A DNA stretch of 64,000 nt, taken from positions 64,001 to 128,000 of the forward strand of contig CAXBMO010000016.1 in assembly GCA_963977015.1 (NCBI GenBank), in the 5' to 3' direction. The position numbers and the translations under genes are program-made. This document shows positions 11,593 to 53,966 of the stretch, in pieces (position 1 is the stretch's first letter; every line of letters begins with the position of its first letter). The DNA comes from an uncultured bacterium. GTDB taxonomy: Bacteria > Verrucomicrobiota > Verrucomicrobiia > Verrucomicrobiales > DEV007. The notes beneath the pieces are model-generated. The model did not search any database. It saw only the letters and a program-made list of their open reading frames with translations, and was not told the DNA's origin.

Positions 11593-13932
11593 ATGTCAGA
11601 AAAATCACCGTTTAAATTCCGCGGATTCCTCAGCTACAGCCGCCGGGACGCCAAGGAAGCCAAAAAGCTGCATCGCCGCCTCGAACGCTATCAGATTCCG
11701 AAAAGTCTTCGCTCGGTCGCGAAAAAGACGCTTGGAAGATTCTTTCGCGACAAGGAAGAGTTGGCCGCCTCCTCGGAACTGAAGGGCGAGCTCACCGAAA
11801 ACCTGGACGAATCCCAGTGGCTCATCGTGTGTTGCAGTCCCGAAGCTGCCGCCTCCAAATGGGTCAATGCCGAGATTGAGCACGTCATCCAAACCCGGGG
11901 ACGCGACGCCGTTCTCGCCGTCATTCTGGAAGGCGAACCGGAAGCCGTCTTCCCTCCCGCCTTGCAGGATCTTCCGCCGTTGGCTGCCGATTTTCGCCCG
12001 CAGGGAGACGGCCAGGACATCGGCTTTCTCAAACTCGTCGCCGGCATTCTCAATGTGGATCTCGGCGAACTCCGGGATCGGGAAGCAGCTGCGCAACGCC
12101 GCCGCGCCCGGCTGCGTTCGGCTCTCGTCACGCTCTTCGCCCTTCTCGCGATCGCCGCTTCCGTCAGCGCCTATCTTGCGATTCAACAACGCGATCGGGC
12201 CGAAAAGATGGCGCTGGAGGCGATCGACATCGGTGCGGGAGTTGTCGATAAGGCAGGCGATTTATCGCGCACCTATCAGGTTCCCACGGAGGCCGTCGAG
12301 GAAATGCTGACCTTCGCCGAGGAACGCTTCGAGCGTCTCTTTGCAGCGGGGGCGAAAGATCCGGAACTCGAACGGCGACGCGCCCAGTTGCTGCTCAGCT
12401 TCGCCTCGGTCGCGAAGCGAACCGGTGACGTGGCTGCGCAACGGCGTTATGCCGAGACCGCGATCGAACAGATGGCTTCCCTCGTCGAACGCGGCGAAGG
12501 CATTCCCGGCCACTACACTCAGGCGCTGATGACCGCGGGTCAGGCCGCGCTGGCCCAGGGCGACGAGACGACCGGCATGAAGCATTTGGAGGGCGCACTT
12601 TCCATCGCTCGCGCCAGCTACCACGATCGAGACGACACCGACCTCCACATTCGGCATCTCTATGGACGGGCACTCTACGAGATGGCGATGGCCAAGCTCG
12701 CGAATCAGGACGGCGCCGCCGCTCGACCCTTGCTCGAGGAAGCCGTACCGCTCTTCGAAGCGAACCGCAATGAAGCGCCGGACGACGAGATTCACGTCAC
12801 CAACCTGATCGTTTCGCTCGATCTTCTGGGTGGGGCGCAAGCTCTCGACCAGGATCGGGAAGCCGCGCTCGCCACTCTGGAACGCGCCATCGACCAGGGG
12901 CGAACCTGGGTTGAGATCCATCCCGGCAGTCTCACCGCGCGAACCACGCTCGCTACCTCGTTGACCAAACTGGCTCAGCTTCGACTGGATTCCGGCAACG
13001 CTCCCGGGGCCGTCTCCTCCTACCTTGAATCCATCGCCCTGACGCGTGAGCTCGCCGAGATCGACCCGGGGAACGCCGAATTGCAGAACAATCTTTCGCT
13101 TCGTCTCGTGCTTGGCGCTCAGGCGCTTCAAACCGTCGGGGATCTGGACCGGGCGGCTGAATTCACGAATGAAGGGATCGCGCTGACCAAGAATTCCATC
13201 GCCGCCGATCCCACCAACGTCGGGCTCAAGAACACCTACCTCTCCATGCTCGACGCCGGTTATGGCACCGCGTCGCAACGGAATGACGCACCGGGCATGC
13301 TCGCCATCGCCCGGGAACAAGCGGCGCTGCGTGGAGATTTGCGAACCCTTCTCGGGGATTCCACGGCACGCAAAACCGATCACGCCTATGCCCTGGAACG
13401 CGTCGGTGACGCCTCGGCCGCAAACCGCAACCTCGAAGGGATGCTCGAAGCCTATGGAGCCGCCGCCCCGTTGCGCCGCGAGCTCCTCGCTGAAGATCCC
13501 CAATCCATCGACGCCCGGACCGCACTCGCCGGAACGCTCCACGCGCTCGGCTTGAGCCACAAATTCGCCAAGCAAAGCGAAGCGGCCCTCGAAGCGCTCG
13601 GCCAGGCAGCGGAACTTCGCTCCGGCTTGGCCGAGCAGGATCCCGGCAACCGCGACATCGCCTTCGCCGCGTCCGACAGCTTTCAACAACTCGCCATCGT
13701 CCAAGCCGGGATCGACGGCGCCGCCAGCCTCGCGAGTCTGGAGTCTGCCGAAGCCCTGCTCGCCAAGCTGGTGGAGGCGCATCCGGACCACGCCGCCTAC
13801 CAGGAATCGCTCAAAAAGACGCGCGACATCCTGCAGATGATCCGCGAATCGCTCGCGCCCGTGCCGGAATCCGCCCTCTCGCCACCTGAGGAGACTTCCA
13901 ACCCTGAAGCGCCTGAAGATTCTCCCGAATAG
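11593..13932 (+). CDS. TIR domain - transmembrane helix - TPR repeat protein
   Basis: TIR motifs FLSYSRRD, FFRDKEEL, LIVCCSPEAAASKWVNAEI; TM SALVTLFALLAIAASVSAYLAI after an Arg-rich patch; helical repeats of the RELAEIDPGNAELQ type. Confidence 0.9.
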   Translation: MSEKSPFKFRGFLSYSRRDAKEAKKLHRRLERYQIPKSLRSVAKKTLGRFFRDKEELAASSELKGELTENLDESQWLIVCCSPEAAASKWVNAEIEHVIQTRGRDAVLAVILEGEPEAVFPPALQDLPPLAADFRPQGDGQDIGFLKLVAGILNVDLGELRDREAAAQRRRARLRSALVTLFALLAIAASVSAYLAIQQRDRAEKMALEAIDIGAGVVDKAGDLSRTYQVPTEAVEEMLTFAEERFERLFAAGAKDPELERRRAQLLLSFASVAKRTGDVAAQRRYAETAIEQMASLVERGEGIPGHYTQALMTAGQAALAQGDETTGMKHLEGALSIARASYHDRDDTDLHIRHLYGRALYEMAMAKLANQDGAAARPLLEEAVPLFEANRNEAPDDEIHVTNLIVSLDLLGGAQALDQDREAALATLERAIDQGRTWVEIHPGSLTARTTLATSLTKLAQLRLDSGNAPGAVSSYLESIALTRELAEIDPGNAELQNNLSLRLVLGAQALQTVGDLDRAAEFTNEGIALTKNSIAADPTNVGLKNTYLSMLDAGYGTASQRNDAPGMLAIAREQAALRGDLRTLLGDSTARKTDHAYALERVGDASAANRNLEGMLEAYGAAAPLRRELLAEDPQSIDARTALAGTLHALGLSHKFAKQSEAALEALGQAAELRSGLAEQDPGNRDIAFAASDSFQQLAIVQAGIDGAASLASLESAEALLAKLVEAHPDHAAYQESLKKTRDILQMIRESLAPVPESALSPPEETSNPEAPEDSPE

Positions 13933-43410: not shown

Positions 43411-45822
43411 CTATTTGGTTCGAAAGGCTTCACTGGAGACGACGATTTCTACCAGCTTTCGCAAACGGTAATCGTTCTCGGCAAACTCGTGACGTATTCC
43501 CTCGATCTCCGGTTCATCGGTGAGTTCCAGCGTCCGGCCCACCGCATAACTCAAGAGCTTGGAAACCAAGGCGTGAGCAAACTGATCTTTCCGTTCCGTC
43601 AGAAGAAAGGCTCGCAGTTCTTCGACGCCCTTTACCTCATGACCACCGGGCAGCACATCCATCGCCACCACCGGATTCGAGACAAACTTTTTGCCCGCCT
43701 TCCGCCGAATCGTCTCTCGATAGAGCCCGACCGCATCAAAATGTTCCAACGCGATCCCCCAGGGATCGATCCCGCGATGGCAATCGACACAACCGGGCTC
43801 GTCACGGTGAGCGGCGAGTTGTTCACGAACCGTCAACTTCGCGAAATCCGGGTTCTCCGCGTCCAGACTCGGCACATCGGGCGGAGGTGGCGCCGGTGGA
43901 TCGTGAAGCAGACGTTCCCGAATCCAGACCGCCCGTTTGATGGGATGAGAGTCTTCCCCGGTCGACGCTCCCAGCAACGTGCTCGCCTGAGTCAACAATC
44001 CCCCTCGCCGCGAATCGGATGCCAGCACCACTTTCTCAAACGCCGTGGTTCGCGGGCCATTCTCAAGGCCGTAGTGACGAGCGAGCGGTTCATTTGCCAT
44101 GACGAAGTCCGAGTCCAGAAACAAAAGCGCTGACAAATTCTGTTCCAGAATTTCCGCGAAGAACGCCTCGGTTTCCTGACGCATCCACGGCTTCAGCGCA
44201 GGATCGAAATCCGGGTAATATTCGGGATTGATCGCCACCCGATCCAACTGGTCCAGATCCAGCCATTGACCGGTAAACTGCTTCACGAAGCGACGCGATT
44301 TCGGACTCTGCAACATCCGCTCAACCTCGGCCGAAAGCGTCGCCGGATCGCTCAGGGTTCCCGCCTTCGCCAACTCAAAGAGCCGGTCGTCCGGCATCGA
44401 ACTCCACAGAAAATAGGAAAGCCGCGAAGCCAGTTCATATTCGTTCAAGGGTCGCTTTTCGTCCGACGAACCCGGTTCCACCAGAAACAGAAACTCGGGC
44501 GAGATCAATGCCATCGCCAACGTCTCTCGCGCCGCTTCTTCGAAGGTCTCAAAGGTGGGGCGAACTTTGGCGAAGTAACGTTGCAGATTCTTCACCTCCA
44601 CTTCGGTTGGCGGCCGACGAAACGCCCGCGCGAGAAACTGCTCCAGAACTTCCCTCATATAAACCAACTCCCCTTCTTCCCGGGTCGCCGAGTCAGGCAA
44701 AATCTGCCGGTGATGGTTCGGCGGCCAGGCCTCGAAAATCGGCGACTTGAACTCGACGGACTCGACCACAATTTGCGGGAAATCGGGATCGGCTTCGTAA
44801 ATGGTTTTCCTGGACTTCTTCTTCGGGTTCTTGGGATTGACCGTTTCAATCGTCATCGCCTCCTTCACGTTCTTCCCATCGTGATAAGCATTGGAAACCC
44901 AGATCAACAGTCCCGGGTACTTGCTCTGAACACGGCTCTGCAGCGGGAACTCTTCAAGGCGGCCGCGAAGCACGTACTCCCTGGACTCAGGCGCCACATC
45001 AATCCTGGCAACTTCCCGCGACGGTCGCTGCGTGTCGGCACGATAACCCAGATCCACTTTCATCACCGGATAAGCCGAGTCCTGCGTCGGCAGCTTCGCG
45101 TGAGCTCGGACCCGAATTTCAAACTCGCCTTCTTCCGGAAAATCGGGAACGCGGGAGACAAACACACCGCTGCGGGCAAGTTGATTCGTGAAGTTCCCCC
45201 TACCCTTGTCCGCATCGCTCTTCTCCGTGAGGTGAACAACGGGCTCGGGCTCGGGACCCAACACGATCGCCCGGCTCAGGGCATTGCGCGCCGTGGCAAG
45301 AAAGTGTTCCAGTTGCATCGCCGACATCCCCAACGAAGCGCCGTTGTTCTGAAATCCATCCGGGCTCAAGGGATCACTCGGCAGATTTCGGACGTAGTTG
45401 AGATCCAGCCTCAGCAGATCCTGCATCGTGTTCTGATATTCCACTCGGTTCAGCCGCCGAATCACCACCCGACCTCCACTTGACTGCTTCGCCGCAATCG
45501 CGCGTTGCAACTCATCATTGATCCAATCGCTCAACACCTTGCGCTCGGCATCGGACGGCTGAGCTTCGTCGTCAGGCGGCATCTCTCCGAGTTGCAGGGC
45601 GTTCAACGCGTCGTGCCAGGTTTCGGCCGCCGCGGAATCGGCTAGCATGTCCGTCGAAAGCGTGTCGAATCGCACCTTGCCCTTTTCCCGGTCCGGTCCG
45701 TGACAACGGATGCAGTAGTCGTTCAAAACGGGACGAACATCACGGTCAAAATCCACGTCTGCAGCCATGGCAAACGCCGGAATCAAGCAAAGGAAAGGAA
45801 GTGGCAGGTGGCGAAACATCAT
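43411..45822 (-). CDS. DUF1592/DUF1588/DUF1585-type planctomycete cytochrome protein
   Basis: CIRCH, RRLNRVEY, ELASRLSYFLWSSMPD, RGGLL, CVDCH, IDPWGIALE. Confidence 0.92.
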   Translation of the reverse strand: MMFRHLPLPFLCLIPAFAMAADVDFDRDVRPVLNDYCIRCHGPDREKGKVRFDTLSTDMLADSAAAETWHDALNALQLGEMPPDDEAQPSDAERKVLSDWINDELQRAIAAKQSSGGRVVIRRLNRVEYQNTMQDLLRLDLNYVRNLPSDPLSPDGFQNNGASLGMSAMQLEHFLATARNALSRAIVLGPEPEPVVHLTEKSDADKGRGNFTNQLARSGVFVSRVPDFPEEGEFEIRVRAHAKLPTQDSAYPVMKVDLGYRADTQRPSREVARIDVAPESREYVLRGRLEEFPLQSRVQSKYPGLLIWVSNAYHDGKNVKEAMTIETVNPKNPKKKSRKTIYEADPDFPQIVVESVEFKSPIFEAWPPNHHRQILPDSATREEGELVYMREVLEQFLARAFRRPPTEVEVKNLQRYFAKVRPTFETFEEAARETLAMALISPEFLFLVEPGSSDEKRPLNEYELASRLSYFLWSSMPDDRLFELAKAGTLSDPATLSAEVERMLQSPKSRRFVKQFTGQWLDLDQLDRVAINPEYYPDFDPALKPWMRQETEAFFAEILEQNLSALLFLDSDFVMANEPLARHYGLENGPRTTAFEKVVLASDSRRGGLLTQASTLLGASTGEDSHPIKRAVWIRERLLHDPPAPPPPDVPSLDAENPDFAKLTVREQLAAHRDEPGCVDCHRGIDPWGIALEHFDAVGLYRETIRRKAGKKFVSNPVVAMDVLPGGHEVKGVEELRAFLLTERKDQFAHALVSKLLSYAVGRTLELTDEPEIEGIRHEFAENDYRLRKLVEIVVSSEAFRTK

Positions 45823-45961: not shown

Positions 45962-47476
45962 ATGACCACGAAACTCCTCCTTGGCCTTCTGCTGGCGACG
46001 GTCGCCAACTCGATCGCGGAACCTCGCTACGCCCGGATTTTTACCGATCACGCGGTCTTGCAGCGGGACGCCAATGTCCTGGTTTGGGGATTCGATGCGG
46101 ACCCCAAAGTTCCCCTTCAACTCCGATTTGGCGCCATCACCGCCAATGCCGGGATCGAACCGGACGGCAGCTGGACCGCCGAGTTGCCGCCGATGCCGGC
46201 CAGCCAAACCGGAAGAAATCTGGAGTTGCTTCAGGGCGAGACCGTCGTGGCCGCCCTGCGCGACATTCTGGTTGGTGACGTGTGGTTGGGCGCCGGGCAA
46301 TCCAACATGCAATTCGTGGTTCGCGGCATGTTGAAAGGACTGCCGGAAGCTCAACGCTGGGCGGACTCGGCAACGAAACCAACGATTCGGATTCGCCGCA
46401 TCGACGCGCCGGTTCTGGAGAGTCGAACCCGGGAATCGCGGGATCTCCCAAAGGCCGATCCCTGGATGGCGATGACGCCTGAGAGCGTGCCGAATTTCTC
46501 CGCGGTTCTCGCGGTCTTCGCCCGCCAACTCAACGATGAACTCGCGGTGCCGATCGGAATCATCGACACCTCCTGGGGAGGGAAACCCATCGAGCCGTTT
46601 ATTCCGCGCGAAGCGTTCGAATCGCCCCTCCTCAGCCCCATTCGCGACCTGGCGGATCGCGATCAGCTGGACGAACTCGCGAAGCACCGTGGCGGCGTCA
46701 TCATTCGCAATCCCGAGGGACATCCCGGCGCGATTTTCAATGCGCGGATTCGCCCGGTCATTCCCTATGCCTTGAAAGGCTTCCTCTGGTATCAAGCCGA
46801 ATCGAACGCCGGCAAAGGCGAGGACCCGCGCAACTATCGGCACAAGATGGAAGCGCTTGCCAGTGGCTGGCGGAATCGCTGGGCGCATCCGGATCTGCCG
46901 TTCTACTTTGTCCAGCTTCCGAGTTATCCCAACGCCACCGGCTGGATTCGGGTGCGCGAAGAGCAACGCCGCTCGCTTTCGATTCCCCATTCCGGGATGG
47001 CCGTGACCATCGACATCCGCGGCGAAGGCATTCATCCGCCCAACAAAGTCGCGGTGGGTGAACGGCTCGCCGCCCTCGCTCTCGCCGACATCAACGACAC
47101 CCCCAGCGGGACCGGCTCCGGCCCGATTTACGCTGGGCACCATATCGTCGGTTGGGAAGTGCGCGTCCGGTTTCGCGAAGTCGGTCAAGCTCTCTTCATC
47201 GGAGACAAACCCGGATTTGGCCCACCGGAGAAAACTCCGGACGAACCCCTCCGCTGGTTTGAACTCGCCGGAGCCGACGGCGTCTGGAAACCCGCCGAAG
47301 CGCGGATCGAAGGCAACGAAGTCGTCGTGCTCTGCCACGAGATCCCGCTCCCCGTCGCCGTCCGCTACGCCTGCACCACCGAACCCCAGGGAGGCAACCT
47401 CTACAACGCAGCCGGCCTCCCCGCCTCGCCCTTCTGCAGCGACCTGGAACTGCTCCCCTGGCAAGATCATCAGTAG
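45962..47476 (+). CDS. Sialate O-acetylesterase family protein
   Basis: HAVLQR, GQSNM, WGG, WYQAESN, IHPPNK, VAVRYA. Confidence 0.92.
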   Translation: MTTKLLLGLLLATVANSIAEPRYARIFTDHAVLQRDANVLVWGFDADPKVPLQLRFGAITANAGIEPDGSWTAELPPMPASQTGRNLELLQGETVVAALRDILVGDVWLGAGQSNMQFVVRGMLKGLPEAQRWADSATKPTIRIRRIDAPVLESRTRESRDLPKADPWMAMTPESVPNFSAVLAVFARQLNDELAVPIGIIDTSWGGKPIEPFIPREAFESPLLSPIRDLADRDQLDELAKHRGGVIIRNPEGHPGAIFNARIRPVIPYALKGFLWYQAESNAGKGEDPRNYRHKMEALASGWRNRWAHPDLPFYFVQLPSYPNATGWIRVREEQRRSLSIPHSGMAVTIDIRGEGIHPPNKVAVGERLAALALADINDTPSGTGSGPIYAGHHIVGWEVRVRFREVGQALFIGDKPGFGPPEKTPDEPLRWFELAGADGVWKPAEARIEGNEVVVLCHEIPLPVAVRYACTTEPQGGNLYNAAGLPASPFCSDLELLPWQDHQ

Positions 47477-47479
47477 CGC

Positions 47480-47504
47480 CGTAGCGGAATTTGCAAAGAT
47501 TCCG
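47480..47504 (+). repeat. GTAG-type REP, single copy
   Basis: CGTAGCGGAATTTGCAAAGATTCCG is 24/25 identical to the reverse complement of 13991-14015. Confidence 0.8.
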
Positions 47505-47537
47505 CCCCACCGGGCTTCGAAACGCTTCGCCCTGATC

Positions 47538-47608
47538 CTCACGCAAAGCCGCAAAGACGCGGAGTCAGGAATTGAAAGAATCTCTGCGACTCAGCGCCTC
47601 TGCGTGAG
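47538..47608. repeat. Imperfect palindrome with about 9-nt internal periodicity (REP-like)
   Basis: CTCACGCAAAGCCGCAAAGACGCGGAG ... CTCTGCGACTCAGCGCCTCTGCGTGAG (21/27 complementary). Confidence 0.75.
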
Positions 47609-47671
47609 ACCAAATCTTTCCCCTTGCTTCCAAGTATCTTCCTTCTTTACCCTCACCCAGATCTTGAGGCC

Positions 47672-50600
47672 ATGGCAGACGAGAATATCTCCTTCACTCT
47701 GAAACGCGAATACTGGTGCTTCATCAGCTATCGGCATTCCGATAACACCGAGCCCGGTCGCGAGTGGGCCTCCTGGCTCCATCACAGCCTGGAAACCTAC
47801 GAGGTGCCCAAGGACCTCGTCGGCAAAACCAACGAGCGCGGCGAAACCATCCCGGCCCAGATCTACCCCGTCTTCCGCGACGAAGAAGAACTTGCCGCCG
47901 GCCATCTCAAGGAAGGCATTCGCGCCGCTCTTGCAGTCGCCAAATCGCTCGTCGTCATCTGCTCCCCCCGCACGCCGGAGTCGGAATACGTCGACGAAGA
48001 AATCCGCACCTACCAGCAATTGCGCAACCAGGAAATCCGCGAAGGCAAAACACCTCGCCGTGCCGATCCCATCATCATGGTCATCGAGGGCGACCCGCAA
48101 GCCGATCCTGCTGACAGCAAAGCAGCCTGCCTCCCGAAAAGCCTCCGGTATGAGATCGACGAAGCGGGTCAAATTACCGACCGGCCCGCACCGGAATCCC
48201 TCTGGATGGATTTCCGCCCGCCCACCGGCGAACCTGGTTGGACGTCCTCGGGCGCCTACCGCGAAGCTGCTCTGGAAGCCGGTTCTTCCGATGACAAAAA
48301 GGCCATCGAGTCCGAAGTCGCCGCCTACGCCAAAAAGCTGGACAACCTCAAGCTCCAAATCATCGCTGGGATTCTCGGGGTTCCGCTGGGCGAGGTGCAG
48401 AAGCGGGACGAAGCTTATCAGGCGATGAAAGCGCGCAAACGCGTTCGTGCCTTGCGCCTCTGGTTGGCGGCAGTGGGGGTGTTTGCGGTAGCTGCTGTGA
48501 TTGGCGGAATTGTCGCGGTCAATCAGCGTGAAAAGACCGTCACTGCGCAGCTGCTAAGCCAAAAGGAAAAGGCACTCAGGCAAAAGGAAATCGAATATCG
48601 TGCGGAAGAGCAAATCCAGCTAGGAATCGCAGCTAGCAATCTCAAAAATCGAGATGAGGCGGCGATTCGCCATCTGCTCGGCTACGAGTTGGCCGAGACT
48701 CATGAAGAAACTCGCCAGGCAGCCACCGAGCTAATTGCCAATGTTCCGAAACCTTTGCAGATTCTTCGCCACCAAAGTGCCGTTGAACGTGCAAAGTTCA
48801 TAAGTTCGACAGACCTGTTGATAAGCGTCAGCGAAGATAAGACAGCAAAAATTTGGAATACCCAAAGCGGACAAATTGTAGGCGAAATTAATGCGCGTCA
48901 AAGTGATGTCAGATCGATGGAATTCAGCAATGAAGGTCAATCTTTCTTTACTCTGAATGGGCGCTCCACAGTTCAAATCTGGGACACACGAAGCGGGAGA
49001 CGTATCGGTGAGCCGCTTAAACATGAATCATATGTAGTAAGCGGAGAATACAGCGTAGACGGCAGTCGCATAGCTACAGTCAGTAGCAAAAAGGCGTGGA
49101 TTTGGGACGTGGGAAGCCGGAGGCAGATCGTCGGACCCCTGGTTCATGGAAGTTACAATCTGAGAGAGGCACGGTTCAGCGCAGACGGTACAAAAGTCAT
49201 CACTATAGGCGACTTTGCAGTTAGAATTTGGAATCTAGAAAGTGGATTGCCCGTCGGCGAGCCGCTAGTTCATGAAGGTAGAATCACCATAGCAAAGTTC
49301 AGTTCCGACGACAGGCTTTTGCTCACGGCAGATGATGGCGGTTCTCTGAAAATATGGGATGCCAAAAGTGGTGTACCGGTTGGTAACGCCTTTCAACACG
49401 AACATTCCATTTACGATGCTCAATTCGCTCCAGATAGCCTGCGTGTCGCTACAGCGAGCAGAGACCAAACAGCACGAATCTGGAACCTACAGAATAGCAA
49501 ACCGGTCGGTGAGCCCCTTCGGCATGAAGCTTCTGTCGTTAGTGTTGATTTTAGTGCGGACGGACGCTTTTTAGTCACCGCCAGCGCGGACGGCACTGCG
49601 CGAATCTGGGACGCGACCAGCGGACTGCCTGTTGGTGCCCCTCTCCATCAAAGTGGTCTCGTTGGTGGAGCAAAGTTCAGTGTAGACGGGCACCAGGTTC
49701 TCACTTATGGGAGGACCGGTGAGGTTGTGAAAATCTGGGACGCAGAATATGGCCAATCCGTGGGCGAAGTATCATTCGGCCAAGAGTCAGCCTTTGCTGA
49801 CTTGCACTTCTCTGCAAAGGGAGCTCGCGTACTCTCGACCACCGGGAACACGGCACGAATTTGGGACCTGCTGACTGGACAGCCAATCGGCGAGGTTTTT
49901 GCGCATGAATGGGATGTCTACGGTGCGAAATTCAGCGTAGACGGACGATTTGTGGTAACGGCAAGTTTTGACCGCACGGCTCAAATCTGGGACGCGAATA
50001 CCAGTTTGCCCGTCGGTGCACCTCTTGAACATGGGGGGATAGTAAGGAGAGCAATTTTCAGCGCCGATGGGCGCCGTCTCTTGACTATTGGTAGGGACGA
50101 TCGAATCGTGCAAATATGGGACGCGGTTGCAGGCCAGCGGATCGGCAACGGCCTTAGCCACGATTCATTTGTAGTGAGCGGGAAGTTTAGTGCGGACGGG
50201 CATCGTGTAGTAACGGTAAGCGATAATCGGTTGGCTAGGATTTGGAACGCAGAAGCCGGGCAGCTTGTGGGTGAGCCTATCGCCCATGAGAGGGTGGTAT
50301 TCAGTCCTGAATTCAGCCCAGACAGCCAGCGATTGTTTACAGCAATCAATAGCGATTCGATTGGTCTTTGGGACTCCAATACGGGGCAATCCATCGGCAT
50401 CCCTCTCACGCACAGGTTTAGTATCAATGGAGTTCGATTCAATCCCAACGGTCGAACTTTAGTTACAGCAAGCGACGACTGTACAGCGCAGATTTGGGAC
50501 GTGCAAAACGGTCATCCTGTTGGTGATTCGCTTCGGCATGGGGGTAGCGTCTCCAGCGCAGAGTTCCGAGGGGACGGACGTCGTGTGGTGACGGCAAGCT

Positions 50601-51136
50601 TGGACGGGACAGTGCGGATCTGGGATGCAGAAACCGGTCAACAGATCGGCGAGCCCTTACGCCACGATGACAAGGTATTTCATGCGCGATTCGATGCAAA
50701 TGGCCGTCGAATTATTTCTCTGGATGCTGAAGGTTCCGCCAGAATTTGGGCTACGACAACCGGCCAGCAACTTGGCGAGGCGTTTACCCACAAAAGCAAA
50801 ATTCGTTCGGCAGAATCCAGTGGCGACGGCCGCTACCTGATCACAAGAAGTCAAGATTCGATTCGTACTTGGAATATGCCAGCCCCGGCTTGGGACGACC
50901 CTGAATGGCTCAAGCTCTCAGTAGAATACCGCTCAAATCATATCTACGATCACGAAAGCCGACTGATCCGAAAATTGACTTACCCGGAACACTTAGAGCG
51001 CCTGAAGTCGCTGCACGAAGAATACTCCGATGAACTCTGCGACTCCCCAACGTGGGAGCAAATCGACCGCTGGGTCGCAGAACAACGGCCGGGTTGGGAG
51101 AGTATGGTCCAATTTTCGAAGCAATCCGAACCTTGA
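47672..51136 (+). CDS. TIR domain - transmembrane helix - WD40 repeat protein
   Basis: CFISYRHSD, VFRDEEEL, LVVICSPRTPESEYVDEEI; TM LWLAAVGVFAVAAVIGGIVAV; more than a dozen repeats of the GEPLRH...FSxDG...TASxDxTARIWD type. Confidence 0.92.
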   Translation: MADENISFTLKREYWCFISYRHSDNTEPGREWASWLHHSLETYEVPKDLVGKTNERGETIPAQIYPVFRDEEELAAGHLKEGIRAALAVAKSLVVICSPRTPESEYVDEEIRTYQQLRNQEIREGKTPRRADPIIMVIEGDPQADPADSKAACLPKSLRYEIDEAGQITDRPAPESLWMDFRPPTGEPGWTSSGAYREAALEAGSSDDKKAIESEVAAYAKKLDNLKLQIIAGILGVPLGEVQKRDEAYQAMKARKRVRALRLWLAAVGVFAVAAVIGGIVAVNQREKTVTAQLLSQKEKALRQKEIEYRAEEQIQLGIAASNLKNRDEAAIRHLLGYELAETHEETRQAATELIANVPKPLQILRHQSAVERAKFISSTDLLISVSEDKTAKIWNTQSGQIVGEINARQSDVRSMEFSNEGQSFFTLNGRSTVQIWDTRSGRRIGEPLKHESYVVSGEYSVDGSRIATVSSKKAWIWDVGSRRQIVGPLVHGSYNLREARFSADGTKVITIGDFAVRIWNLESGLPVGEPLVHEGRITIAKFSSDDRLLLTADDGGSLKIWDAKSGVPVGNAFQHEHSIYDAQFAPDSLRVATASRDQTARIWNLQNSKPVGEPLRHEASVVSVDFSADGRFLVTASADGTARIWDATSGLPVGAPLHQSGLVGGAKFSVDGHQVLTYGRTGEVVKIWDAEYGQSVGEVSFGQESAFADLHFSAKGARVLSTTGNTARIWDLLTGQPIGEVFAHEWDVYGAKFSVDGRFVVTASFDRTAQIWDANTSLPVGAPLEHGGIVRRAIFSADGRRLLTIGRDDRIVQIWDAVAGQRIGNGLSHDSFVVSGKFSADGHRVVTVSDNRLARIWNAEAGQLVGEPIAHERVVFSPEFSPDSQRLFTAINSDSIGLWDSNTGQSIGIPLTHRFSINGVRFNPNGRTLVTASDDCTAQIWDVQNGHPVGDSLRHGGSVSSAEFRGDGRRVVTASLDGTVRIWDAETGQQIGEPLRHDDKVFHARFDANGRRIISLDAEGSARIWATTTGQQLGEAFTHKSKIRSAESSGDGRYLITRSQDSIRTWNMPAPAWDDPEWLKLSVEYRSNHIYDHESRLIRKLTYPEHLERLKSLHEEYSDELCDSPTWEQIDRWVAEQRPGWESMVQFSKQSEP

Positions 51137-51210
51137 CGTGGTGATTTGGGGATTGCTAGTGGAATTATTCGGACCCTCAAACAGTTACCGGTGGGCGAAA
51201 GTGAGCACAA

Positions 51211-51522
51211 TTGGCGGCTCTCTATCTCAAGGCGCTGGAGGCGGAAAACTGGGCTGCGGCGGAGACTTTTACGTCACAGCGACTGGCCAAGATGAAGCCG
51301 GGGGCGGAACGGCTCACCTGGGCCAATTCGAGCGTCGTCTGGGCCGTGACGCAGGTGATTCCCAACCAAATCGACGCTGCCTTGCAGAACGGCTTCATCA
51401 AGCTGGCCGAAATGCGCCTCGCCTCTTCCAAGGTGTTTGCCGCGACGTTGCCGGAGGCGCATCGGGCGCATTTCGCGGATCTGGAGCGCAAGATTGCGGA
51501 GGCGAGGGCCAACGCGGATTAA
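51211..51522 (+). pseudogene. Orphan helical C-terminal gene fragment
   Basis: TTG start with an in-frame TGA 9 nt upstream and no RBS; its tail is duplicated at 51628-51724. Confidence 0.5.
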
Positions 51523-51529
51523 ACGACAA

Positions 51530-51626
51530 GGAGCGGCGACAATCCTGTCGCCCCCGGTGCCCTTGAATGACCTGCCGCGCACGAACTGCACGGATACTTC
51601 GCGGGCGACAGGATTGTCGCCGCCCC
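51530..51626. repeat. REP doublet (REPIN-like)
   Basis: GGAGCGGCGACAATCCTGTCGCCC (51530-51553) and inverted GGGCGACAGGATTGTCGCCGCCCC (51603-51626), 23/24 complementary. Confidence 0.85.
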
Positions 51627-51724
51627 GTGCGCCTCGCCTTGGCCAAGGTGTTTGCCGCGAGGCTGCCGAAGGAGGAGAAGTATCGCGCGCTTTTTGAAGA
51701 CCTTGCGCGGAAGATTGCGGAGGC
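51627..51724 (+). pseudogene. Second, diverged copy of the same C-terminal fragment
   Basis: VRLALAKVFAARLPKEEKYRALFEDLARKIAEA versus MRLASSKVFAATLPEAHRAHFADLERKIAEA at about 51412-51503. Confidence 0.65.
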
Positions 51725-51752
51725 CCCAAGTTTCCGAGCTACTGACCAGAAT

Positions 51753-51783
51753 CTGACTCTGCGTCTTGGCGGCTCTGCGTGAG
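51753..51783 (-). repeat. Distal inverted-repeat arm matching 47538-47568
   Basis: Reverse complement CTCACGCAGAGCCGCCAAGACGCAGAGTCAG is 28/31 identical to 47538-47568. Confidence 0.8.
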
Positions 51784-51820
51784 GGTTCCCGGCAACCTGA
51801 GATCCGACTTCGCTCGCAGC

Positions 51821-52273
51821 CTACCGCCTTCGTTTCGGCGGCAATTTGATCAGCTGGGTGCCTTCCAGATCTTCCCGTGCCTGGCGGGCCATGGCGGCGG
51901 CCACTGGATTGACATCGGAATCTCCTTCGTCCATCGGCTCGGGAACTTCCAATTCCTCCACGGTCAGGATGTTGAGTGTGACGGCTTTGCCGAGGATGAC
52001 TTCGTCGCCGTATTGGATCAACAAGGCATCCCAGCCCACCGCCATCCCATTGATCTGAGATCCATTGGTCGATCCGAGGTCGCGAAAGATCCATTGGGAG
52101 GAGTCCGCGCCTTTGACAAATTCGCAGTGCGTGTTGGAGAGCGCTGGATTGTCGATCTGGAGATGATTGTGCTTCGAGCGTCCAATGCGAATCAGGTCTC
52201 CGTCAACGTGGAAACAGCGAGGTGCCTCGTTCGACACCGTCACCATGAGAACAGTCTTGAGTATTAAGCTCAT
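51821..52273 (-). CDS. FHA domain protein
   Basis: IGR, LSNTHC and DLGSTNG FHA signature residues. Confidence 0.9.
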   Translation of the reverse strand: MSLILKTVLMVTVSNEAPRCFHVDGDLIRIGRSKHNHLQIDNPALSNTHCEFVKGADSSQWIFRDLGSTNGSQINGMAVGWDALLIQYGDEVILGKAVTLNILTVEELEVPEPMDEGDSDVNPVAAAMARQAREDLEGTQLIKLPPKRRR

Positions 52274-52637
52274 TGAAAAAGTACCTCGCTACTTTTATGC
52301 CATCTGTCGCGGCAAATTCCTAAAAAAATCCGGAATTTTCTGGGTTTTTTCCGCTCTTTGCCGGAATTCGCTCGGAAGGGAGATTTTCCCAGCACAAAAC
52401 AACGATTTTGGCCAAGTGCCGCGACTGGATTTCGCATTCCCCGGACATTGCGACCGATTTCCGGTCGCGGTCCGCTCACGCTCGAGAAAAGCGGGGTTGG
52501 CGTCCGTGGTTCATGTGCCGAAATGGACAGCAAGTGCGGCTTGCACGTTGATGGTGTGTTCGCGGTTTGGCGGCAACGCACCGGCGCCGAAATCGACCCT
52601 GGCGAAAGATGTATTGTGATCGGTCCGTGCAAACCAT

Positions 52638-53966
52638 ATGACCAAATCGTGGCATCTTGATCGTCGCACGCTGCTTCACGGGGCGGGCGCTTCCCTTGCG
52701 CTTCCTTTTCTGGAATGCATGGGCGCAGCGACTCCGGCGTCCGAGCTTCCGAAACGATTTTGCGCAATGTATTTCCCCTATGGCGCGAGCACGCCGCCGG
52801 ACAATCATGAAGACCGAAAGTGGGGATTTTTGCCGACGGGCGAAGGGCGCGATTTCCAGTTTACGGAGAGCCTGAAATCGCTCGAGCCATTGCGTGACCA
52901 GGTTTCCTTCCTCCAGGGCCTGTCTCACCCCAACGGGCGAAGCATGGGAGGTCACGATACTGCCGACATTTTTTTGACCGGCGCCAAGCTCAAAGGCGGT
53001 GAGCTGAAAAATTCCATTTCACTCGACCAGGTGCTGGCCCAGCCGATTGACGGGCAAACGCGCTTTACCTCGCTCGCGCTTTCGACCGATGGAGGCGTGG
53101 GCGAGCCGAGCCGTTCGAGCACGCTCTCGTTCAGTCAAACCGGTCAGCCCATTCCGGCCCTGAACTCTCCCCGGGTGCTGTTCGATCAACTCTTTGGGGC
53201 AAACAGCGCCTCACTCTCAGCCCAACGCCGCGAACTGGTCAATTCCGGGAGCATGCTGGATCTGGTTCTGGAACACGCGAAGTCGGTTCGCGGAAATCTC
53301 GGCCGTCTGGACCAACAGAAGTTTGACGAGTACCTCGATTCGGTTCGCCAGATCGAGCAGCGCGTCGAGCGCTCGCAGGAGTGGCTCACGGTTCCCAAAC
53401 CCCAGGTCAACGCCACGGGCCTGCATCTCGAAGCGGACGACAACACGCCCGCCGATTTGATCCGCACGATGTATGATCTGCTCTTTCTCGCGTTTCAAAC
53501 CGATTCCACCCGAGTGGCGACGTATCAGCTCGGCAACATGAATGGCGCGACCTCGATTGCCGGGAAGTTTCCCCAGCTGCTCGGCCTCGGGAAGACCATG
53601 CACAGCACCGCTCATGGCGCCGGCAAACCCGGCGGATTCAAGGCACAGGGAAAGTGGGATCAATTCCTCGCGTCCCAACTGGCCTACTTCCTGAACCGGC
53701 TGGCCTCCACGCCGGAAGGATCGGGAAGTCTGCTGGACCGCACGGTCGTGTTTTACGGGTCGAGCAACAGTCGCACCCACAACAACTCGAACTACCCGCT
53801 GGTTCTGGCCGGAGGCAAAGACCTCGGGTTCCGTGGCGGGGCGCTGCACAAGTTCGACGCCAAAACGCCGCTCTCGAATCTCTTCGCCACGATTCTCCAT
53901 CAACTGGGCAATCCGGCGGAAACGTTTGCCGACAGCCGCGGGGAGATGACCGAGGTTGTGGGTTAG
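52638..53966 (+). CDS. DUF1552 domain-containing protein
   Basis: RRTLLHGAGASLALPFLECM, SISLDQVLA, EYLDSVRQIEQR, AFQTDSTRVAT, PLVLAGG. Confidence 0.92.
   Translation: MTKSWHLDRRTLLHGAGASLALPFLECMGAATPASELPKRFCAMYFPYGASTPPDNHEDRKWGFLPTGEGRDFQFTESLKSLEPLRDQVSFLQGLSHPNGRSMGGHDTADIFLTGAKLKGGELKNSISLDQVLAQPIDGQTRFTSLALSTDGGVGEPSRSSTLSFSQTGQPIPALNSPRVLFDQLFGANSASLSAQRRELVNSGSMLDLVLEHAKSVRGNLGRLDQQKFDEYLDSVRQIEQRVERSQEWLTVPKPQVNATGLHLEADDNTPADLIRTMYDLLFLAFQTDSTRVATYQLGNMNGATSIAGKFPQLLGLGKTMHSTAHGAGKPGGFKAQGKWDQFLASQLAYFLNRLASTPEGSGSLLDRTVVFYGSSNSRTHNNSNYPLVLAGGKDLGFRGGALHKFDAKTPLSNLFATILHQLGNPAETFADSRGEMTEVVG

Follow-up and report, generated by a model that had tools for sequence, protein, structure and literature searches.

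In a 64,000-nucleotide stretch of DNA from an uncultured verrucomicrobial bacterium (assembly GCA_963977015.1, contig CAXBMO010000016.1, positions 64,001 to 128,000 of the forward strand; hereafter the window, whose own numbering is used throughout), we analysed a gene whose product combines an N-terminal TIR domain, one predicted transmembrane (TM) helix and a C-terminal array of WD40 repeats. This target gene probably encodes a single-pass TIR membrane protein that is a recombinant of a gene resembling P0007, a homologue from another genome of the same genus, and an ectodomain cassette of nSTAND1 type, and that belongs to a large mosaic family. A preliminary description of the window had proposed a TIR-TM chassis with a swapped-in WD40 part, and this proposal held: the chassis is 87% identical in amino acids to that of P0007, compared with ~25% for the ectodomain, and the breakpoint falls at the end of the TM helix.

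The gene ends with the stop codon TGA. Its parent open reading frame (ORF) runs from 47624 to 51136 (+), and the ATG at 47672 was taken as the start. The parts of the gene are as follows.

47672..51136, forward strand: TIR-TM-WD40 gene, 1154 aa, with TIR_2 and WD40 Pfam matches
47672..48531, forward strand: chassis, made up of the TIR domain (~aa 1-185), juxtamembrane helices (aa 193-262), a basic patch and the TM helix (aa 265-285)
48464..48526, forward strand: predicted TM helix, aa 265-285, Kyte-Doolittle 2.65
48532..51136, forward strand: ectodomain cassette, made up of a helical linker (aa 287-365), 17 WD40 repeats (aa ~366-1070) and a C-terminal domain (aa ~1064-1154)

Pfam identified TIR_2 (PF13676) at aa 17-120 with 30.6 bits (cut-off 28), an overlapping ThsB_TIR match of 28 bits, and WD40/beta-propeller matches at ~aa 366-1060 (WD40, 249.7 bits), while no NTPase family is among the Pfam matches of aa 1-343. 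The single strongly hydrophobic 19-mer of the protein lies at aa 265-283 (Kyte-Doolittle 2.65). The 17 WD40 repeats have a period of 42 aa, and the last of them ends at aa 1066. A recently amplified array of high internal conservation was considered and rejected, as Tandem Repeats Finder saw no near-identical WD40 repeats.

A junction at the end of the transmembrane helix

We designate the genome of the target G000, a genome of the same genus G001, the closest relative G003 and a further compared genome G002. With aa 1-300 as query, 458 of 7995 scored proteins reached E<=0.001, and the best match was P0007, a WD40 protein of 1162 aa encoded at L019:9998-13486 in G001. When 20 kb around each gene were compared by blastn, 47670-48531 aligned with L019:9996-10854 (85.6% identity over 863 bp), and no G001 DNA match was found upstream of the ATG or in the WD40 part; in the target, the G001-like DNA opens at the start codon and stops where the TM helix ends. 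Sliding identity to G001 is 0.87-0.98 at 47686-47925 and 0.70-0.77 at 48286-48525, and it stays at a background of 0.3-0.45 from ~48530, with a drop from 0.73 to 0.42 between the windows 48466-48525 and 48526-48585. Between the two ectodomains identity is 25% over 638 aa, and when 57 family members are ordered by WD40 score to the target, P0007 comes only 32nd. These comparisons place the recombination junction just 3' of the TM helix, at ~48527-48560.

Base composition breaks at the same place. The drop after the TM helix reported in the preliminary description relied on hand counts of G+C, which are exact (38/60 at 47761-47820 and 26/60 at 48781-48840), and it reappears in the G+C content of third codon positions (GC3), where changepoint analysis separates 0.722 before codon 270 from 0.506 after it (z 6.27). 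Expected GC3, calculated from the genome's own codon preferences for each amino acid, is ~0.65 for both parts. The chassis (aa 1-286) deviates little from it (0.696 observed versus 0.648 expected, z +1.7), while aa 287-1154 fall well short (0.491 versus 0.650, z -9.95), and the statistically supported breakpoint for which a GC3 and codon check had been proposed is thus found at the TM end. Gene proxies of the genome, which served as background, have a mean GC3 of 0.644 (sd 0.064, n=4417). By changepoint |z| the target ranks 12th among 450 ORFs of at least 800 aa (95th percentile, 4.79) and 13th after trimming of 60 codons for possibly over-extended starts; the other six chassis paralogues of the genome all have |z| <= 2.23. 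A GC3 step is also present in P0007, where it is milder (z 3.1).

The sequence beyond the junction has relatives of a different kind. P0131 is the only one of 245 proteins of the family and of the WD40 set that is matched by the linker and the C-terminal domain; it has nSTAND1 at aa 14-413 and a TM helix at ~aa 506-530, followed by the linker and then the WD40 array. At the protein level the target tracks P0007 to ~aa 286 and then P0131 in the linker and the C-terminal domain; the composition breakpoint, the end of G001 DNA homology (48531) and the protein switch to nSTAND1-TM-WD40-like sequence coincide at the TM end. Judged by protein similarity, the putative swapped-in module is related most closely to a STAND NTPase ectodomain, not to one from another TIR protein. 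At the DNA level nothing in G000-G003 matches the cassette except itself.

Of the 119 best WD40 relatives, 103 have a strongly hydrophobic segment, and most carry nSTAND1 or kinase heads. In G001 a module of WD40 array and tail sits on a chassis TIR (P0007), on a different TIR_2 head (P0355, E 1e-24) and on nSTAND1 (P0356), and the TM helix and ectodomain of P0007 are colinear with those of P0355 at 52% identity. Predicted TM-anchored WD40 modules are common to TIR and STAND NTPase heads. We also observed, among the WD40 relatives, nSTAND1 NTPases and Ser/Thr kinases with a TM helix between head and WD40 array, an arrangement that may hint at a transmembrane class of STAND NTPases.

A second piece of P0007-like sequence lies on the far side of the cassette, within a set of repeats that flank the gene.

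51205..51522, forward strand: orphaned C-terminal tail remnant, open for 105 codons in a frame other than that of the gene, GC3 0.774
51628..51724, forward strand: second, partial tail remnant, a duplicate of 51413-51503 (direct repeats D7, D8)
51527..51629, no strand: REP-like palindrome between the tail remnants (inverted repeat I2, 30-nt arms, 90% complementary)
47537..47608, no strand: hairpin 3' of the upstream esterase gene (inverted repeat I3), whose right arm, 47582-47608, is the left direct repeat copy
51757..51783, no strand: right direct repeat copy (D12), 85% identity, 4175 nt from the left copy

The first remnant begins 69 bp past the TGA stop. Its translation is 65% identical to the last ~100 aa of P0007 (tblastn span 51220-51507) and its DNA is 88% identical to G001 over 51335-51508; for the second remnant, tblastn gave 72% over 32 aa (51627-51722). 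Other WD40 proteins of the genus also terminate in this tail (P0355 and P0356 in G001), and orphan tails also lie 3' of P0007 (two copies) and of one G002 gene (one copy). Mismatches to G001 at codon positions 1/2/3 number 23/17/84 in the chassis and 18/13/27 in the remnant, a weaker third-position bias in the remnant (27/58) than in the chassis (84/124; Fisher p 0.009), and the alignment of the remnant with G001 carries a 19-nt gap. This relaxed codon-position bias, together with the gap, fits a displaced and decaying gene end.

Identity to G001 at third codon positions reaches 0.705 in the chassis (0.847 in its first 260 nt) and 0.828 in the tail remnant, as against 0.488 and 0.508 in two baseline genes compared between G000 and G001; elsewhere the two genomes are 67-78% identical over 20 kb of window DNA. 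Since the chassis and the tail are far closer to G001 than the baseline, a P0007-like gene was apparently exchanged between members of the genus at a time when the species had already split. The ancestor of the target would then have been a gene of this type, with the chassis, a WD40 array and the conserved tail. The stretch from just past the TM helix to just ahead of the tail would have been replaced by an incoming cassette of linker, WD40 array and C-terminal domain, with a lower GC3 and its own stop codon, and the old tail would have stayed behind, out of frame and decaying.

Several observations concern the repeats themselves. Half of the REP-like palindrome recurs at 84-94% identity on four G000 contigs and six G001 contigs. 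The direct repeats bounding the block that holds the gene are 27-32 nt copies of the right arm of the hairpin, the second at 51753-51784. In G001, at L019:13486-15700, two tail copies alternate with a ParE-type toxin-antitoxin pair and a DUF6883 + DUF4926 pair, and this array, which resembles one of orphan modules, stands between the genes of a sulfite reductase and an isocitrate dehydrogenase.

Locus history and alternative readings

The syntenic site of G003 lacks a 4.2-kb block (47620-51820) that takes in the gene and the remnants. Contig L026 of that genome matches window positions 46829-47619 with its positions 1-785 and 51821-52326 with its positions 850-1353; the flanks are 77-82% identical. 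The empty site has a single hairpin (L026:700-850), colinear with that at 47537-47608. The difference from G003 may be either a site-specific insertion or a deletion between the repeats. We read the gene as accessory and as having moved, and the mosaic may have formed before the block entered the G000 genome.

The join is in frame and gives the ORF of 1154 aa. A Logan contig of run X1 spans 48188-48737 with 0 differences and bridges the 5' junction, and another X1 contig covers 50837-51415, bridging the stop codon and the tail remnant. Runs X2-X4, which are marine metagenomes from a second study, contain pieces of the chassis, the WD40 part and the tail at >=99% identity.

The order of events may be turned around: a resident gene of the nSTAND1-TM-WD40 type may have lost its NTPase head and gained the TIR-TM chassis, or a ready-made mosaic may have arrived within the 4.2-kb block. 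We regard this as unlikely, although both the third-position identity of the chassis to G001 (0.705 versus a baseline of 0.49 and 0.51), which points to recent movement, and the absence of the whole block from G003 speak for it. The P0007-like tail, with its chassis-like GC3, lies on the far side of the cassette; replacement of the middle explains both flanks, while a head swap needs a second insertion, and the compositional outlier is the cassette and not the chassis. The variant of a ready-made import leaves the conclusion of a mosaic unchanged. Far less probable is that no recombination took place and that the WD40 array diverged fast under diversifying selection, with codon usage being specific to each domain. 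WD40 sensor arrays of fungal NLRs reportedly evolve fast, and the milder GC3 step of P0007 would be in keeping with such a process, but the linker and the C-terminal domain, which are not repeats, are homologous to P0131 and not to P0007, the displaced tail is physically present 3' of the stop, identity falls from 0.73 to background within ~60 bp, and the GC3 expected from amino-acid composition is equal for both parts.

An assembly artefact, by which a chimeric contig would have joined two genes at the conserved chassis, is equally hard to credit. The genome is a draft of 51 contigs with an estimated contamination of 2%, and the junction is bridged by X1 contigs only. Nevertheless, two simultaneous chimeric joins would be required, the reading frame continues across the join, synteny with G003 holds on both sides of the block, the chassis paralogues of the genome are at most 43% identical in amino acids and thus too diverged to mislead an assembler, and the contig of an independent assembler crosses the junction with 0 differences.

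The recombinant origin that we favour also has points that weigh against it. The search for a cassette donor gave only proteins that are 31-44% identical, the gene models behind the GC3 background are ORF proxies and not an annotation, and the third-position baseline consists of 2 genes only. The tail remnant is still an open frame of 105 codons, and some use of it is possible. Among the X2-X4 pieces listed none bridges 48531, which leaves the junction to the X1 contigs, and these may come from the source sample itself. Parsimony, with one foreign piece between two ancestral ones, and GC3 are what give the event its direction. As to function, PADLOC gave only a weak SAVED_TIR match (24.9 bits), and no defence genes flank the target locus.

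The neighbours of the target are a SASA esterase, an FHA protein, a DUF1552 protein and an S8 peptidase. The following of its surrounding genes were delimited.

51821-52270, reverse strand: FHA-domain protein
52638-53963, forward strand: DUF1552 protein
43411-45822, reverse strand: large protein

The large protein is probably of the PSD1/DUF1592 type; DUF1552 and PSD1/DUF1592 proteins are typical of Planctomycetes and Verrucomicrobia. In G003 the SASA esterase and FHA genes are adjacent, without the TIR gene. None of the esterase, FHA, DUF1552 and 43411-45822 proteins resembles a partner of the TIR gene, and there is no small gene 3' of the target stop codon.

The chassis family and its exchangeable ectodomains

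The window encodes a second protein with this chassis.

11593..13932, forward strand: 'Receptor 1', 779 aa, short-form chassis paralogue with a TPR-like helical ectodomain

The preliminary description held that the two proteins share a TIR-TM chassis, and that one continues into TPRs and the other into WD40s. Its motifs are exact (11986/12037 in Receptor 1, 48206/48362 in the target), and BLASTP aligns the proteins with 28% identity over 281 columns (E 2e-11), spanning the TIR domain, the post-TIR motif, the basic patch and the TM helix. In Receptor 1, TIR_2 scores 49.8 bits in Pfam and the TM helix lies at aa 179 (Kyte-Doolittle 2.24); there is no GC3 breakpoint (z -2.1). The different ectodomains were also recovered: to the WD40 score of the target correspond, in Receptor 1, TPR matches that are under the Pfam cut-off (TPR_17, 18.5 versus 24.4) and a phmmer match of 2e-18 to the TPR region of a paralogue.

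A profile built from 14 chassis sequences matched 21497 representatives of 50%-identity clusters at E<=0.001, of which 14546 also pass <=1e-10 and 7233 pass <=1e-30. The 150 best-scoring of these 7233 all match the whole profile (positions ~2-266) at their N-terminus and have lengths of 326-1947 aa. The traits of the family, all of which the target has, are an N-terminal TIR domain, D-F-R and A-G-I-L-G motifs, a basic patch, a TM helix at aa ~180-290 and a variable C-terminal part. Homologues come mostly from Verrucomicrobia (Prosthecobacter, Luteolibacter, Roseimicrobium, Akkermansiaceae and Chthoniobacterales), with a few from Rhizobium and Kiritimatiellia. G000 itself encodes six further chassis paralogues, three with TPR-like ectodomains, two with WD40 (one weakly) and one without an assigned ectodomain, and there are 13 chassis matches in G001 and nine in G002.

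Phylogenetic analysis was based on 126 rows, comprising 119 of the 120 matches listed (of 458) and seven copies from the target's own genome; P0022, which has no TM peak, was dropped. Their ectodomains were classed as WD40 (65), TPR (22), ankyrin (1) and other (38), 13 of the 126 labels being assigned by hand from Pfam lists. Some WD40 members carry FGE-sulfatase, PDZ or LysM domains and some of the 'other' members LprI. On the FastTree chassis tree the ectodomain label requires at least 29 changes (mean of shuffled labels, 51.8), and the starred branches alone force at least 10 changes for WD40. The target and P0007 group together (99*) inside a clade of eight rows (100*) whose other six members are TPR proteins with 61-64% identical chassis. 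An IQ-TREE analysis of 39 rows (18 chosen and 22 random rows, minus P0022) agrees with this clade.

Among the 143 pairs with at least 80% chassis identity, nine (6 distinct cluster pairs) have unrelated ectodomains, and the pair of target and P0007 is the most extreme; at >=70% chassis identity, 201 of 400 pairs, which are not independent of one another, are discordant. The family-wide exchange of ectodomains that the preliminary description had envisaged is borne out by these class changes and unrelated pairs. The histories of the TIR and WD40 parts, whose congruence it had singled out as a check, are incongruent: P0007 is closest to the target by chassis and lies far down the list by WD40, and both sit in a clade with TPR proteins.

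Other TIR genes of the target genome were also observed. G000 holds 34 TIR_2 matches, and six of the 11 TIR_2-bearing ORFs of at least 800 aa are in the top 25 of 450 for GC3 changepoint (ranks 7, 8, 12, 13, 17 and 19; hypergeometric p 6e-6), which suggests that compositional mosaicism is common among its TIR genes. Further TIR genes with a mosaic appearance include C32:18981-23327, C36:12123-18149 and C11:148150-150954. Giant ORFs of 12520, 8967, 8881 and 6417 aa occur on G000 contigs C14, C12 and C3, some with strong internal GC3 shifts.

Predicted function and relation to known systems

The AF2 model of the chassis (pLDDT 87.3) has a flavodoxin-like TIR domain and, behind it, long helices that extend into the TM helix, and Foldseek matches it with a probability of 1.0 to the TIR domains of SARM1, RPP1, RUN1, L6, AbTir and SPARTA. 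The catalytic-position Glu that had been described as retained is indeed present: E110, the second E of YVDEEI, falls opposite the Glu of the TIR motif of flax L6 when the profile is aligned to the PDB, and it is invariant in 14/14 sequences of alignment A2 and in 126/126 chassis rows, as are S19, S98-P99, G140 and R182 in the 126 rows. The Glu of this column, in the motif that follows the third strand, is catalytic in enzymatic TIR domains. At the sequence level, a phmmer search of the PDB with the chassis gave no match at E<=1, and P0005 against the PDB found only a designed helical repeat protein. The 824-aa 'Tetratricopeptide repeat protein' of PDB entries 9m0n and 9umd aligns to the TIR core of the chassis profile (E 0.002) and may be a solved TIR-TPR protein with a bearing on Receptor 1.

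The net charge of the 15 residues before the TM helix is +4.9 and that of the 15 after it +1.1, and it is higher before the helix in 123 of the 126 rows. TIR domains need NAD+, and NTPases and kinases need ATP, so the heads are expected in the cytoplasm and the repeats outside. The TIR domain of the target is accordingly predicted to be cytoplasmic, with its repeats beyond the membrane. In the mechanism that we propose, the N-terminal enzymatic-type TIR domain and the juxtamembrane helices would lie in the cytoplasm and ~870 aa beyond the membrane; a ligand outside the cell would bind the propellers and cause clustering, which the TM and juxtamembrane helices would relay, and the TIR domains would then assemble and cleave NAD+. 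SARM1, plant TNL and bacterial TIR enzymes are activated by oligomerisation, and the target may, by analogy, depend on oligomerisation as well. The effector would probably be the TIR domain itself, because no partner gene is conserved. Cleavage of NAD+ by the target and its role as a receptor or in defence are likewise predicted by analogy to these enzymes.

It is possible, though we consider it the weaker alternative, that the target is not an NAD+-cleaving immune or abortive sensor but a protein of envelope or environmental signalling, or a scaffold, in which the TIR domain is an interaction module. The surroundings of the target are not those of a defence island, a mild argument against an antiphage role, and no defence island is found around the G001 gene either (flanked by sulfite reductase and isocitrate dehydrogenase); the large number of TIR_2 matches in the genome (34) and ectodomains with FGE-sulfatase, PDZ and LysM, which are typical of envelope biology, favour the same reading. 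A mere interaction module, however, sits poorly with a Glu and surrounding motif that are invariant in all 126 rows and with best structural matches that are enzymatic TIRs. Presence/absence polymorphism, paralogue expansion and cassette turnover are typical of conflict genes, and toxin-antitoxin pairs stand beside the G001 gene. Furthermore, in E. coli, phage protection is conferred by TIR systems that include TM or TPR domains (PMC11350192).

The closest parallel in overall logic is found in TLR and IL-1R receptors, which are single-pass proteins with an ectodomain built of repeats and a cytoplasmic TIR domain (predicted for the target), sensing outside and assembling TIR domains inside. Unlike in TLRs, the TIR domain of the target is N-terminal (a type II order, as opposed to type I), there is no signal peptide, the repeats are WD40 or TPR instead of LRR or Ig, and the TIR domain keeps the enzymatic-type Glu, while that of TLRs is an adaptor scaffold. 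The resemblance is one of logic only, with no sign of common descent of the architecture. With the enzymatic TIRs (SARM1, plant TNL and TIR-only proteins, AbTir, SPARTA TIR-APAZ and ThsB) the target shares the fold, the Glu column and the TIR_2/ThsB_TIR matches, but these are soluble or coupled to an NTPase or Argonaute, whereas the TIR domain of the target is tethered to the membrane by a helical juxtamembrane module, without a conserved partner gene. It further differs from Thoeris ThsB, which is small, in its length of 1154 aa, and no ThsA adjoins it, a statement that covers the locus neighbours and not a genome-wide search for ThsA.

STAND NTPase sensors (nSTAND1, Avs/NLR-like proteins and fungal HET-E/D) have the same kind of WD40 array, but the target has no NTPase domain and its repeats follow the TM helix, presumably outside the cell. 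Shuffling of heads and repeat arms has reportedly been described for fungal NLRs; unlike such shuffling, the swap in the target is caught at the DNA level with a leftover remnant. In this respect the locus resembles the polymorphic-toxin loci of Rhs and CDI systems, which have a conserved 5' part, a replaceable 3' part and displaced orphan C-terminal modules downstream. Displaced 3' ends are also found downstream of the genes of the target family (one and one-third remnants here, two in G001 and one in G002), but Rhs and CDI loci exchange a toxin with its immunity gene, and the target locus a WD40 sensor ectodomain. This likeness is one of process and not of protein family.

Antiphage systems of one or two genes in E. 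coli combine TIR with a TM segment or TPRs, and their defence needs the TIR active site (PMC11350192). The same paper states that TLR-like features, TM and repeats, seem absent from bacterial TIR systems; the target family has this very layout, and it is from their description only that the E. coli systems are set apart here. We found no description of the TIR-TM-WD40/TPR family in the literature searched, which included passages of PMC7075850, PMC7159879 and PMC11350192 and left subscription journals and supplements outside. Among bacterial TIR sensors with repeat arms, the target is notable for its transmembrane design, the size of its family and the swap with its remnant.

Collectively, an outer part swapped in from another gene suggests shuffling of sensor modules between signalling heads in bacteria. 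We tentatively raise the possibility, for which we would not claim better than a minority chance, of an undescribed, very large and Verrucomicrobia-rich group of transmembrane immune-type receptors, with a cytoplasmic NADase TIR or, interchangeably, STAND NTPase head, one TM helix and extracytoplasmic sensors of WD40, TPR, ankyrin or other type that are exchanged as cassettes at a hotspot on the outer side of the membrane, leaving orphan tails behind. To our knowledge, known bacterial TIR defences sense invaders inside the cell. If true, such receptors would mirror the logic of TLRs in prokaryotes and renew their repertoire by a mechanism built into them, and threats would be sensed before cell entry. 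The locus catches an exchange of sensors in the act, with a sharp junction at the TM end, a cassette of foreign composition and a leftover ancestral tail, and thereby offers a concrete and testable model of how surface-sensing receptors may diversify, together with natural chimeras for experiments.

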